A DNA stretch of 63,102 nt, the filler included, from Neolecta irregularis DAH-3 (lineage: Eukaryota): NCBI GenBank assembly GCA_001929475.1. It is 12 parts of 12 records of this genome, joined end to end, with 100 filler letters (N's around TTAATTAATTAA, not from the genome) between each part and the next. Parts side by side here need not be neighbours in the genome. Positions count along the whole stretch, not along the records: positions 1 to 16,993 come from LXFE01002894.1; 11 more parts are not named here. One strand, given 5' to 3'. This document shows positions 12,872 through 16,503 of this stretch, piece by piece; position 1 is the first letter of the stretch; the number at the start of each line of letters is the position of its first letter. The translations under genes were made by a program, and so were the position numbers. A model generated the notes under the pieces. It made no database searches and was not told the origin of the DNA. It worked only from the letters and a program-made list of their open reading frames with translations.

Positions 12872-14210
12872 CTAGGTCCCTGTAATAATATCAATCGTGC
12901 TTCTATCAAACCGGTTTTTCACGCTGCTTTCCAATAATCGAGACCGAGCTATGTTGGACCTAATGTCTTTCCCATATACTTTAGAGAGCACAAATGGCAC
13001 CATGTCAGTAACACATTTCCGCATATCTTCATAGGTGCGATCGTATATATTCTGGTAGCGTGGTAAAGGCTCTCGTAGGATATTTATCGCCCCTAATATA
13101 ACAGCTAACACTGCTTCTGTATTACCATGATCGTTATTGTAAATTAGTTTGAAGAATAATTTTTCTAGAATGGGCGGTTGGTGGCCTAGAAGATTCATAG
13201 CTCCTTCAAACATTTCCCAGGCAGATTCGAACTGGCTATCCTGAGTGGAATCCGTTAGATATATGAGTGGTTGATTGTTAGGTAGACCGGAACCGTGCTG
13301 TATCATAGCGTAATCTCCATTGCCATATGAAACGATAAAAAGGTAAAAATCTTTTGCATGGATAAACAAAGACTTCTTTATTGGATCAAAAACAGTAGTG
13401 AAGTCTTCACCACTGTTCAAGTCTCGACCAATGCTGTGGCTGAATATATCGAGAAAAGCCAGCGCAATTATGTCTAAGAATTCCGAAGATTCTGGCCATG
13501 ATTTGAGGCCAACGAGGATTTCGTCGGTGATTGAATGTCCAGGGATTTTGTGGTCAACGCTGATTTCTTCATGGATCGAATGTCTAGAGATTTTGCGTCG
13601 TTTGGCCTTTGGCCCTCCTGTATCATTTTCCTCAATAAAATCACCTGTATCTCTTTCAATAATATCACCTGTATCCTCCTCAATAATATCGACTACACTT
13701 GCTGGTTTACCATTCACCGCAGAGCTCCAGCAGCCACGCAAAAAAGGTTCATAGCATTTTACTGAGCATGAATATCCCTGTTGAATGTGATCGATCCACT
13801 CCTCACGGGATTCAATATTTCGAGAGAACTCTTTTACAAGGTCAAATTTTCGTGGTTCCTTGATACTAATTATTAATTTCCATACTAACCGTTGCTTACT
13901 TGTAGAATGCTATCATTGGATAATCGGATGAATCTTGATATGGATAGATAGCTGGGTGAGGCTTCGCATATGTAATACATTCGTGGTGTGGGGTCACGAT
14001 GAATGCATTACAGAAATATTTCTCAAAGAAACATTCCTGTGCACATTCATGTATCTGTTGTACAAAGGTTCCGTCAGGGTCGGGAACACGAGAAGTGGCT
14101 GCTTCGCTTTCATCTAATTTAACAAACACTTGTGTGAAATGATCGAGATATGAGGCAGCGCAAAAGAGATTTGTATGAAGCACGATTGACCACAAGATCC
14201 TGGATAACAT
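12872..14210 (-). CDS. Secreted protein: signal peptide + PAN/Apple-like Cys domain + acidic repeats + NLS + unknown C-terminal domain (copy 1, about 434 aa; intron 13866-13899)
   Basis: A 34-nt GTAAGC..ATTAG intron joins ORF 13896-14210 in frame to ORF 12872-13741; CAQECFFEKYFCNAF..C; PKAKRRK. Confidence 0.8.
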
Positions 14211-14454
14211 GATATAGGGTAAATGGACTGCGTAGTGTAAGGATGCGGCATAAGCCTATAGAGTGAATAGAGTTGGGTAAAACCTCTCCCCGTGGAATCA
14301 AGCCCTTTTATAGATGTCGCAAGATGGTGTTGGTTCCGACTTTTCCTTACTCTCTCGGAAAGAAAAACAAAAATGATGTGAAACATATGAGACCAGCCAG
14401 AAAGAGTTGAAGTAGAAATATCCAGGTGCCGAATCAAGCGCAGCTACCACCTTT

Positions 14455-14720
14455 TGAATAGAATGAATATCATTGAATGACTGAATATGAAGGAATGATT
14501 GATTGAATGTGAAGGTATGATTAATGATTAATGACAATGATAATAGATATGATATGATGAATATGATTGAATGATGATTGATTGAACGAATGAATATTGA
14601 ATATGATGAATGATTGATAGATTGAATGTAAAGGCAATGATAGATATGATGAATAGATATATGATAAAGAGATATGACTAGGACTCTATTGAATCCTAGA
14701 GGATTCAAATGAATGGAATG
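14455..14720. repeat. Low-complexity AT-rich (GAAT/GAT)n tract
   Basis: Repeated GAATGA/TGAT words with almost no C on the plus strand. Confidence 0.8.
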
Positions 14721-15179
14721 GCCAACGGGGGATTGGGAATCGAGATCTGATTCTGATTCTGAATCGAGATCAGGGCGGGTTGGGTCTAGCGGGTCAAGAT
14801 CGAGATCTGCAGGTTTTTCCCCCGAGGCATCAAGCCCTTTTATAGATGTCGCAAGATAGTGGTGCCTCCGGCTTTTCCTTAATGTCTCGGAAAAAAGCCA
14901 CAAATGATGGATGTGGCTAGAAAGTTGGCTAGAAGACAGTCCATAGGGCATAGAGGCTGTCGCGCAGAGCCCGTACTTCAGAACATGGATCACTGGGGAC
15001 AGAAATGACCATTGTTAATCACATGGCAAAACTATTGGGGTCTATCAAGCCAAATAATCGTTGTAGGATGATTGACAGGTCAACTCTGGATCGCCTCTGC
15101 CATGTCGATTGCCGTAATAGCGGTCTTACAATAATCAAACAATAAAGTCTAAAACAAAATAAACCATATCTAGGTCCCA

Positions 15180-16503
15180 CTACCCATATGTAATAATATC
15201 AAGCATACTTTTTTCAAACCGATTTTCCACGCCACTATCCCATAATCGAGACTGAGTTATCTGGGATTTAATGTCCTTCCCATAAACTTTAGAGAGTACA
15301 AATTTCACCATGTCGGTAAGACATTTCAGGGAAGTAGGTCTTCCACTATCCTGCATATTCTGGTCGATGTTTGAAACATAGCTCAAAAGGATATCTGTCG
15401 CCTCTAATATAACGGCCGACGCTGGTTGGACAAGATGTTGTTTAAATCCAAGTGGTGTTGAATGAGTAAAGGTCTTTTGTTGGCCTAGCAGATTCATAGC
15501 TCCTTGAAACATTTTCAAGGCAGATTCGGATTGGATAACCTGACTGGGATCCGTTGCATAGGTGAGCAGTTGCTTTTCTTCAAGTCGATCGGGACGGTAT
15601 TTTATGATACCGTAATCTCCCTTGCCATGTGAAACGATGAAAAGGTAAAAGCCATTTCTATGGATAAACAAAGACTTCTTTATTGGATCAAAAACAGTAG
15701 TGAAGGGTGGAACAATGTTGTGGCTGAATATCTCGAGAAAAGCCAGCGCAATTATGTCTGAGAATTCCAAAGATTGTGGCCATGATTTGAGGCCAAAGGC
15801 GATTTCTGTGGTGATTGAATGTCCAGGGATTTTGCGGCTAACGGTGATTTCTTCAGAATCATTAGAGATTTTGCGTCGTTTGGCCTTTCGCTCTCCTGTA
15901 TCATTTTCTTCAATATAATCACCTGTATCATTTTCCTCAATAAAATCACCTATATCCCTTTCCTCAATAATATCGACTACAGTTGCTGGTTTGCCATTCA
16001 CCGCAGAGTTCCAGCAGCCATCCAAAAAATGAGGCCAGAATGAAGACGGCAGTGGTGGTAAATATCCCTTTTCAACGTTTTTGACCCACTTGTCACGGGA
16101 TTCAATATTGCGAGAAAGCTCTTCAACAACGTCAAATTTTCGTGGTACATTGATACTACATTATCAATTACCATACTGTCACAGGTGCTTACTTAGTGCC
16201 TGCTATCATTGAGCAACCAGATGAAAATATATCCGGAGAAATCTTGTTCGCATCTAAGAAACAGCCCTTTTGGTTCTTTGTAGTGATGATGGCGAGGAAT
16301 GAATTACAGGAATACTTCATTGAGAAGCATGACTCTGCACATATCTCTATCAGCTGTACATGGTTATCTTCAAGGTCCTGAACAGGAATAGCAGCTGGTT
16401 GGCTTTCACCAAATTTAACTACCACCTCTGTGAAATAATGGAGATATGAGGCAGCGCAAAGGAGATTCGTTAGCACGATCGACCACAAGATCCTTGACAA
16501 CAT
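15180..16503 (-). CDS. Secreted PAN/NLS family protein (copy 2, about 428 aa; intron 16156-16192)
   Basis: Same MLSRILWSIV start and intron position as copy 1; CAESCFSMKYSCNSF..C; RKAKRRK; C-terminal domain homologous to copy 1. Confidence 0.8.

Follow-up and report, generated by a model that had tools for sequence, protein, structure and literature searches.

Tandem two-exon genes of Neolecta irregularis DAH-3 that may encode exported proteins with a PAN-like module and an Ulp1/SENP-like fold

The tandem genes and their relatives

A stretch of 63,102 nucleotides (nt) from the genome of Neolecta irregularis DAH-3 (assembly GCA_001929475.1), which we call the window, carries on its minus strand two adjacent genes, G1 and G2, that form a tandem duplication and encode proteins of 434 and 428 amino acids (aa), in agreement with the size of about 430 aa given by an earlier, sequence-only reading of this DNA. 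We hold with middling confidence that they are fast-evolving, probably exported two-module proteins, in which a PAN-like binder encoded by a first exon is joined to an Ulp1-shaped pseudoprotease encoded by a second. The genes and the units of the duplication are as follows.

14210 (ATG) to 12872 (stop), minus strand: gene G1, two exons, product of 434 aa
13900..14210, minus strand: G1 exon 1, 311 nt (103 codons plus 2 nt, phase 2)
13866..13899, minus strand: G1 intron, 34 nt, GTAAGC..TTAG, phase 2
12872..13865, minus strand: G1 exon 2, 330 codons plus the split-codon base and the stop
16503 (ATG) to 15180 (stop), minus strand: gene G2, two exons, product of 428 aa
16193..16503, minus strand: G2 exon 1, 311 nt, signal-peptide-like start and Cys module
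16156..16192, minus strand: G2 intron, 37 nt, GTAAGC..GTAG, phase 2
15180..16155, minus strand: G2 exon 2, 57% aa identity to G1 exon 2
12573..14421, minus strand: duplication unit 1, with 3' flank, gene G1 and promoter region (TATAAAAG at 14305-14312)
14909..16680, minus strand: duplication unit 2, with gene G2 (TATAAAAG at 16588-16595)

The sequence-only reading had proposed that the two open reading frames (ORFs) seen for each gene are halves joined by a short phase-2 intron, and several observations bear this out, its coordinates and intron phase being correct. Exon 2 lies in a frame that stays open for 345 codons in G1 and 326 in G2, with the first ATG far inside; exon 1 of both genes ends in AA directly before GTAAGC, with an in-frame TAA at the donor (13897-13899 in G1; 16190-16192 in G2), so that an unspliced transcript would encode a 104-aa signal peptide and PAN-like module alone. 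Both the position of the intron (phase 2) and its GTAAGC..AG form are identical in the two copies. When the exons were joined with an X, a single colinear high-scoring segment pair with P0001, an uninterrupted metagenomic ORF of 367 aa, spanned the splice junction (G1 residues 57-432 vs. P0001 residues 11-364, pairwise E 7e-23; G2 vs. P0001, 1e-17). As judged from reading frames, a GT..AG segment of 40 nt would join the halves of an SNF2-family gene in the window, and one of 38 nt those of a Sld2 gene; the shortest in-frame GT..AG candidates measure 39 and 38 nt in an OPT transporter gene, 35 nt in a kinase gene and 37 nt in a gene for ribosome recycling factor. In these last three genes the candidates carry, 5-8 nt ahead of the 3' AG, an element of the CTAAC, CTAAT or TTAAC type, and the G1 intron has TTAAT at this position. 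The source genome appears to be fungal-like, with ultra-short introns.

44900-44860, 56700-56660, 6646-6608, 6136-6099, 35030-34996 and 24196-24160, minus strand: candidate short introns of housekeeping genes, placed from reading frames

The coding sequences of G1 and G2 differ by 11 internal indels, each a multiple of 3 (3, 12, 9, 6, 3, 3, 6, 18, 3, 12 and 3 nt); those in the intron measure 2 and 1 nt, and those in the flanks 1, 2, 4, 5, 7, 10 and 35 nt. Under simulated random substitution, the frame stayed free of stops in none of 2000 runs at either 20% or 24.7% divergence, and at 10% in 6 of 2000. Taken together, the short introns nearby, the colinearity of P0001, the in-frame indels and the simulations indicate that both frames have been kept open by selection as two-exon units, and we take G1 and G2 to be real, intact two-exon genes, with the splice sites placed from genomic sequence. 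In G2 there is also an upstream in-frame ATG at 16579-16581, 26 codons before the conserved start; since this ATG follows the TATA box by 7 nt and G1 has nothing equivalent, it is probably not used.

The tandem duplication of about 2.3 kb described in the sequence-only reading was recovered, with 73.5% identity over 1912 columns between the two units, a period of ~2.3 kb and a TATA box (TATAAAAG) 92-102 nt 5' of the ATG in both. That reading had also set well conserved non-coding flanks against a strongly diverged mature N-terminal domain. By ungapped comparison of segments, identity between the copies is 87% in the 3' flank, 76% in the 5' flank and 85% in the intron, and, within the coding sequence, 89% in the signal-peptide codons, 67% in the mature N-terminal domain, 91% in the repeats and basic cluster and 76% in the C-terminal domain. 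Of the flanks, only the 3' one, which carries large indels, is clearly better kept than coding sequence.

The pairwise ratio of nonsynonymous to synonymous substitution rates (dN/dS) between G1 and G2 is 1.00 overall. The most constrained part of the protein is the run of signal-peptide codons (dN/dS 0.04, synonymous rate dS 0.55, Fisher p 0.002), which agrees with the signal-peptide-like N-terminus predicted before. In the comparison by segment, none had a dN/dS significantly above 1, the highest being 2.18 with a Fisher p of 0.11; significant positive selection is not borne out, and neither is the description of the family as diversifying. Along the gene, dS ranges from 0.09 to 0.55, and this unevenness suggests exchange between the copies. 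What these rates show is fast divergence under a maintained reading frame.

The 3' flanks (12573-12790 and 14909-15125) hold a 15-bp inverted repeat, in which ATCTACATGGCAGAG pairs with TTTTGCCATGTGATT ~70 nt apart, with 0 compensatory pairs between the two sequences; two sequences alone offer no covariation by which to judge a structured RNA there. An Rfam search of 12000-16990 gave no match at E <= 1. Between G1 and G2 lies a third promoter-like segment, with a TATA box and gene-less (14820-14909), which matches 14288-14378 and 16577-16638. Next to it are a short palindromic GATTCTGA/TCAGAATC region and, at 14455-14677, AT-rich sequence resembling a microsatellite; the segment may be all that is left of a further array member.

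Relatives of the two genes are few, and a short C-terminal motif marks them.

1..204, minus strand: third copy, cut short by the start of the window and a gap of 10 Ns, with 98% identity to 12849-13052 (G1 3' end)
48911..49666, plus strand: distant partial paralogue P3, 31% identity over 199 aa, 5' end cut by a linker
12878-12889 (G1), 15189-15200 (G2), 49649-49660 (P3) and residues 361-364 of P0001: the motif D-I-I-T

As far as sequence searches reach, the family is nearly an orphan, with two full copies, one truncated copy, one distant partial paralogue and one outside match, and the earlier view of it as lineage-specific holds up. A full HMMER pass over 1.84 billion representatives returned P0001 as the sole outside match (E 9.3e-10, 35% identity), and the 90% cluster of P0001 has one member, on a contig of 1605 nt. 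Word-indexed searches gave no match among 1220 candidates with G1 exon 2 and none among 7514 with the four-sequence alignment, and nothing besides P0001 when P0001 itself was the query; in metagenome contig scans, 0 of 128 pattern matches were confirmed for the alignment and 0 of 56 for P0001, and in a viral contig scan 0 of 89. The family profile found no further copy among 783 window ORFs of at least 40 aa, a set that excluded P3 because of its N-derived X residues. All four members (G1, G2, P3 and P0001) carry D-I-I-T unchanged, 2-3 residues before the C-terminus, within a tail predicted to be disordered. The copies lie at contig ends or gaps (1-204; the contig ending at 16993; 48911, directly after a linker) and, the window being a chain of contigs, more copies may be collapsed or missing.

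This placement, the overall dN/dS of 1.00 and the near lack of homologues would also suit a multicopy element that is decaying or selfish, whether a family of pseudogenes or a gene derived from a transposon, with no cellular function; Ulp1-like domains, to which the second exon will be compared below, are passengers of some transposons. However, both frames are intact against the simulations (0 of 2000 runs), every coding indel is in frame, and the intron, splice sites, TATA box and signal-peptide codons are kept in both copies; in addition, transposase, integrase and reverse-transcriptase families had no match among the 77 window ORFs scanned, and no further copies were found in the window. 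We consider such an element very improbable.

The first exon

14154-14210, minus strand: G1 signal-peptide-like residues 1-19, conserved codons
about 13902-14078, minus strand: G1 PAN/apple-like Cys module, recognized by Cys spacing and weak Pfam and fold matches

In both proteins the N-terminus opens with M-L-S-R, continues with the hydrophobic h-region ILWSIVL(H)TNL(F/L) and closes with C-A-A before S, giving a small -3/-1 site, and no later segment of G1 or G2 is of transmembrane strength (maximum 1.35-1.48). The Cys module, the acidic repeats (three) and the basic cluster KRRK were all located in the architecture that the sequence-only reading had described. The Cys spacing is C-x3-C-x6-C-x2-F-x7-C in G1 (C56, C60, C67 and C78) and C-x3-C-x6-C-x2-F-x11-C in G2 (C55, C59, C66 and C81). 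A PAN core has four Cys residues with C-x3-C ... C-x2-F ... C spacing and nested disulfide pairing; in P0001 the first and fourth Cys are both missing and the inner pair is present, and such a joint loss of the outer residues fits nested pairing. In solved PAN/apple modules a helix lies against a small sheet. The best Pfam match of G1 exon 1 was PF00024 PAN_1 (E 0.013). An unbiased fold search over 48,161 chains (the set used for all such searches here) placed TgMIC4 apple domains at the top for an AlphaFold2 (AF2) model of exon 1 (Z 4.8, 52 residues, root-mean-square deviation [rmsd] 3.5), followed by the SML-2 lectin (Z 4.4), MIC4-A5 and plasminogen (both 4.1), the HGF N-domain (3.7), factor XI/kallikrein apple domains (3.6-3.5) and an Eimeria PAN module (3.3), and Foldseek listed HGF NK1 and plasminogen at E 3-7.

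Several features of exon 1 weigh against a secreted PAN protein. Hydrophobicity of the h-region is no more than moderate (mean Kyte-Doolittle 1.6-2.2), with H, T and N among its residues; PAN_1 scores 15.8 bits on G1 vs. a gathering cut-off of 21.4, and exon 1 of G2 has no PAN match; the AF2 model has a predicted local distance difference test score (pLDDT) of 54.5, with a best fold Z of 4.8 and no row at Z >= 5. The PAN/Apple-like nature of the module, as proposed earlier, agrees with the spacing and, at low scores, with the top fold rows, but does not reach the Pfam threshold, and we would call its support weak but concordant. For exon 1 as a whole, a signal peptide with a PAN/apple-like module seems likely to us.

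The second exon and its disordered loop

12968..13843, minus strand: G1 clan-CE-like fold, exon-2 residues 8-299 (Ulp1 2hl9, Z 8.6; SENP8 2bkq, Z 8.5)
13629..13690, minus strand: G1 acidic repeats, 24 nt x 2.6, unit D-T-G-D-[IF]-I-E-E, starting V-V-D-I-I-E-E-D
15895..15974, minus strand: G2 acidic repeats, 27 nt x 3.0
13592..13603, minus strand: G1 basic cluster KRRK, residues 192-195
15870..15881, minus strand: G2 basic cluster KRRK, residues 196-199

The C-terminal domain had been left unrecognised in the sequence-only reading, and it does stay blank to sequence methods, but its AF2 model matches Ulp1/SENP and other clan-CE proteases. This model, built from a four-sequence alignment, has a mean pLDDT of 61 and a predicted template modelling score of 0.69, with a core (exon-2 residues 110-300, pLDDT 65-88) that runs helix, five strands, helix, strand, two helices, and with three more helices at residues 9-51; two stretches are disordered, residues 300-330 and residues 59-110, the latter with the acidic repeats and KRRK. 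In the unbiased search the first 14 rows were all Ulp/SENP/CE-clan or YopJ-family proteins (Z 8.5-6.4, 144-187 residues aligned): SENP8 and SnCE1 (both 8.5), Chaetomium Ulp1 and SENP7 (both 8.0), a de-sumoylating protease (7.9), Ulp1 and SENP1 (both 7.7), SENP3 (7.6), SENP5 (7.5), XopD (7.3), HopZ1a (6.7), NopD (6.6) and SseL (6.4, two rows). A second look at the Foldseek top 1000, a list biased by construction in which 2 of the 50 rows listed were unrelated by title, gave Ulp1 at Z 8.6 (174 of 218 residues, rmsd 4.0, model residues 8-299). The Foldseek list against the PDB was headed by SENP7 (E 0.02), Ulp1, SENP2/5, XopD, SseL and NopD, with SENP7 and Ulp1 at E 0.02-0.07, and a language-model search, independent of the fold search, pointed to Peptidase_C48 clusters at 0.90-0.92. 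The BFVD viral structure library gave nothing at E <= 0.001, its fifth row being a phaeovirus 'putative ubiquitin-like cysteine protease' (E 0.048), and a profile search against PDB sequences gave chance-level rows only (E >= 0.2).

Some results tell against this assignment. Unrelated rows begin at Z 6.3 (~92 residues aligned) in the unbiased search; no Foldseek match in the PDB reached E <= 0.001; the language-model (Atlas) search with P3 gave nothing usable, and the Peptidase_C48 lead was not reproduced; Pfam PF02902 had no match in any of the four members even at E <= 10; and the model derives from four sequences, with a Z of ~8.5 in the middling range. On balance we judge it fairly likely, at the moderate confidence such a model allows, that exon 2 encodes a clan-CE (Ulp1/SENP) fold.

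From exon-2 residue 120 onward, no alignment column has His or Cys in all four members, and the domain has a single Cys per member, spread over three different columns. Clan-CE proteases work through a catalytic His, Asp and Cys, with Gln as the oxyanion residue; we reject an active SUMO protease for want of a conserved His or Cys, and the domain is probably a pseudoprotease. If the topology is read against the Ulp1 layout as we take it to be, the triad positions of G1 would presumably be F173, H190 and H246-N248, at the start of helix 248-264. The sequence-only reading had spoken of a binding module with a payload; the two-module layout stands. The coincidence of the module boundary with the intron suggests assembly by exon shuffling.

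The acidic repeats are true tandem DNA repeats in G1 and G2, and together with KRRK they form a disordered loop (pLDDT ~35), inserted where the N-terminal helices of the CE-like fold give way to its core. Both P3 and P0001 are without the repeats and KRRK, sharing a different segment of ~45 residues there instead. Just past KRRK, G1 carries a further 45-nt tandem repeat (13502-13595, 2.1 copies, 77% matches), which encodes two 15-residue units of the type HSI-x-EEI-x-V.

The loop lends itself to three readings, none of which we favor: a nuclear localisation signal (NLS), a Kex2 site or a SUMO-interacting motif (SIM). KRRK itself might just as well be the first as the second. KRRK fits the monopartite importin-alpha pattern K-[KR]-x-[KR], as had been noted, but this pattern occurs in 8 of the 40 window ORFs of at least 150 aa, and KRRK is missing from P3 and P0001. 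A loose SIM, as set out in part of PMC12751080, has a four-residue core with at least three V/L/I residues and acidic flanks; V-V-D-I-I-E-E-D fits, and since 10 of the 40 long window ORFs also match, we keep the SIM reading of the acidic repeats as a lead only. KRRK is in addition the only KR/RR (Kex2-type) site in each protein.

This last point raises the thought of a Kex2-processed pro-protein or a two-chain, toxin-like protein, in which a cut in the Golgi at KRRK would part the PAN-like end and the repeats from the core. The site (residues 192 and 196) is single, disordered and in the first half of the sequence, properties by which Kex2-processed pro-domain effectors are predicted according to a passage of 10.1101/2020.05.27.120113, and part of PMC4617103 describes Kex2 sites between repeats of secreted fungal proteins. 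The former source, however, gives Leu or another aliphatic residue as the preferred P4, and P4 is Lys here; the site moreover lies inside the CE-like fold, between helices 8-51 and core 110-300, so that cleavage would cut the domain, and neither P3 nor P0001 has an equivalent site there. Processing at KRRK strikes us as highly doubtful.

An Ulp1/SENP-like fold with a basic cluster would also fit nuclear SUMO-pathway proteins, and G1 and G2 might be endogenous intracellular, probably nuclear, Ulp-like paralogues with an uncleaved N-terminal stretch, KRRK as their own NLS and a motif that agrees with the loose SIM definition, the more so as PAN support is weak and N-terminal hydrophobicity moderate. 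Yet no part of the protein is more constrained than its first 19 residues, which close with a small -3/-1 site, and an oxidising environment outside the cell is what the Cys pattern and the PAN/apple-like matches suggest. One would expect an Ulp with a housekeeping role to retain its triad and to be widespread, as opposed to one match in 1.84 billion and no conserved His or Cys; the SIM-like pattern is, as said, common among long ORFs of the window. We regard this alternative as quite unlikely.

The sequence-only reading itself had proposed a host-nucleus effector system: a secreted effector taken up by host cells, with KRRK-driven import into the host nucleus and the C-terminal domain as payload. 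The signal-peptide codons are kept while the mature part diverges, KRRK fits the NLS pattern in a disordered, accessible loop, and the payload fold is that of SUMO-pathway enzymes, from which the nuclear-effector idea gains some coherence. A passage of PMC3355726 describes XopD as acting in plant nuclei, and XopD and NopD, bacterial CE-clan effectors, are among the fold matches; Ulp1-like peptidases are reported, in part of PMC5289972, among the C-termini of Crinkler-type effectors, which accumulate in host nuclei. As stated, this system is not supported. Its NLS motif is unspecific, is absent from half of the known family (and so is no family feature, nor are the acidic repeats) and doubles as the only Kex2-type site; LxLFLAK, HVL, RxLR and dEER uptake motifs were not found in G1 or G2, the four members do not share catalytic residues, and G1 and G2 are surrounded by housekeeping genes. 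Import into a host nucleus is, in our view, unlikely.

Interpretation and comparison with known systems

The reading that we prefer, an exported protein with a PAN-like binder and an Ulp1-shaped pseudoprotease, suggests the following course of events. The protein would enter the secretory pathway and be exported; its PAN-like module would then attach to a surface ligand, as PAN/apple-type disulfide modules bind glycans or proteins outside cells; and the pseudoprotease module would bind a partner without cleaving it, perhaps a protein of the ubiquitin-like kind or a peptide tail. The fast change of both modules would follow from their acting at a boundary with another organism or non-self. Against this last step stands the finding that dN/dS is ~1 with no segment significantly above 1, which is not by itself an arms race.

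If secretion is true, a eukaryote would be exporting a ubiquitin-like-protease fold as a binding module, and binding of a ubiquitin-like protein would offer a concrete handle on a protein left blank by sequence methods; if the source organism is free-living, the genes would simply be an orphan secreted family. A bolder version, which we regard as a long shot, is that a eukaryotic microbe exports the Ulp1/SENP-shaped pseudoprotease, that the PAN module, lectin-like, carries it to a target cell, and that the loop, with SIM and NLS, brings it to the nucleus, where it binds SUMO or its conjugates uncleaved; the protein would then be an exon-shuffled, non-catalytic counterpart of XopD and NopD.

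Around G1 and G2 lie fungal-type housekeeping genes, among them OPT, an XPG-like nuclease, RGS, ERO1, Sec20, an SNF2 helicase, PUF, Sld2, the primase small subunit, RNase P p30, kinases, CENP-L and the 49-kDa subunit of complex I. Open frames with no Pfam match also occur, at 1319-2677 (minus strand, 452 aa) and at 3275-5269 (several of 160-300 aa). The window is a chain of contigs with eleven linkers of the form N44-TTAATTAATTAA-N44, which have stops in all six frames, and adjacency across these linkers is not assured.

16994-17093, then at 18457, 19869, 40273, 45403, 46535, 48811, 51377, 52827, 54128 and 61853: linkers
205, 20103, 40096 and 62730: 10-N gaps

Among known systems, the Ulp1/SENP proteases (MEROPS clan CE, Peptidase_C48) resemble exon 2 in overall fold, N-terminal helices included, with SENP7 at Z 8.0, SENP8 at 8.5 and SENP1, 2, 3 and 5 at 7.5-8.1 against the exon-2 model. 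Unlike them, the family of G1 and G2 has no sequence-level match and no conserved His or Cys, its domain is preceded by a signal-peptide-like start and a Cys module, and in G1 and G2 a 50-residue acidic/basic disordered loop is inserted. The bacterial CE-clan effectors (XopD, NopD, SseL, ChlaDUB and the YopJ family) share the fold class (Z 5.4-7.8) and are likewise modular proteins, used against another organism, XopD in plant nuclei according to the passage cited above; they are, however, active enzymes injected by bacterial secretion systems, whereas our family is eukaryotic, starts with a signal-peptide-like stretch and is without the triad. The Crinkler (CRN/CR) effectors are eukaryotic and combine a delivery part with a swappable C-terminal module, for which an Ulp1-like form is reported in the part of PMC5289972 mentioned before, but G1 and G2 are without the header motifs LxLFLAK and HVLVxxP, and their N-terminal module is PAN-like.

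With Kex2-processed and SP7-like fungal repeat effectors, G1 and G2 have in common the signal peptide (here predicted), disordered repeats and a single dibasic site, and a passage of PMC4617103 describes hydrophilic repeats and a host-nucleus location for SP7. There is no sequence relation to these effectors, the dibasic site of G1 and G2 lies in the loop of a folded domain, and the repeats number only three. With the PAN/apple modules of the HGF N-domain, plasminogen, factor XI, MIC4 and SML-2, the two proteins share the Cys spacing C-x3-C-x6-C-x2-F..C, although G1 falls below the Pfam cut-off, G2 has no match and P0001 keeps the inner Cys pair only.

No description of such a family was found among the papers looked at, as judged by titles and the openings of abstracts. 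Both folds have been described before, and so have, in general terms, candidate secreted proteins that are encoded in tandem and change fast. The novelty, by comparison with all of these systems, seems to lie in an exon for a signal peptide and a PAN-like module spliced to a complete Ulp1/SENP-shaped domain without catalytic residues.

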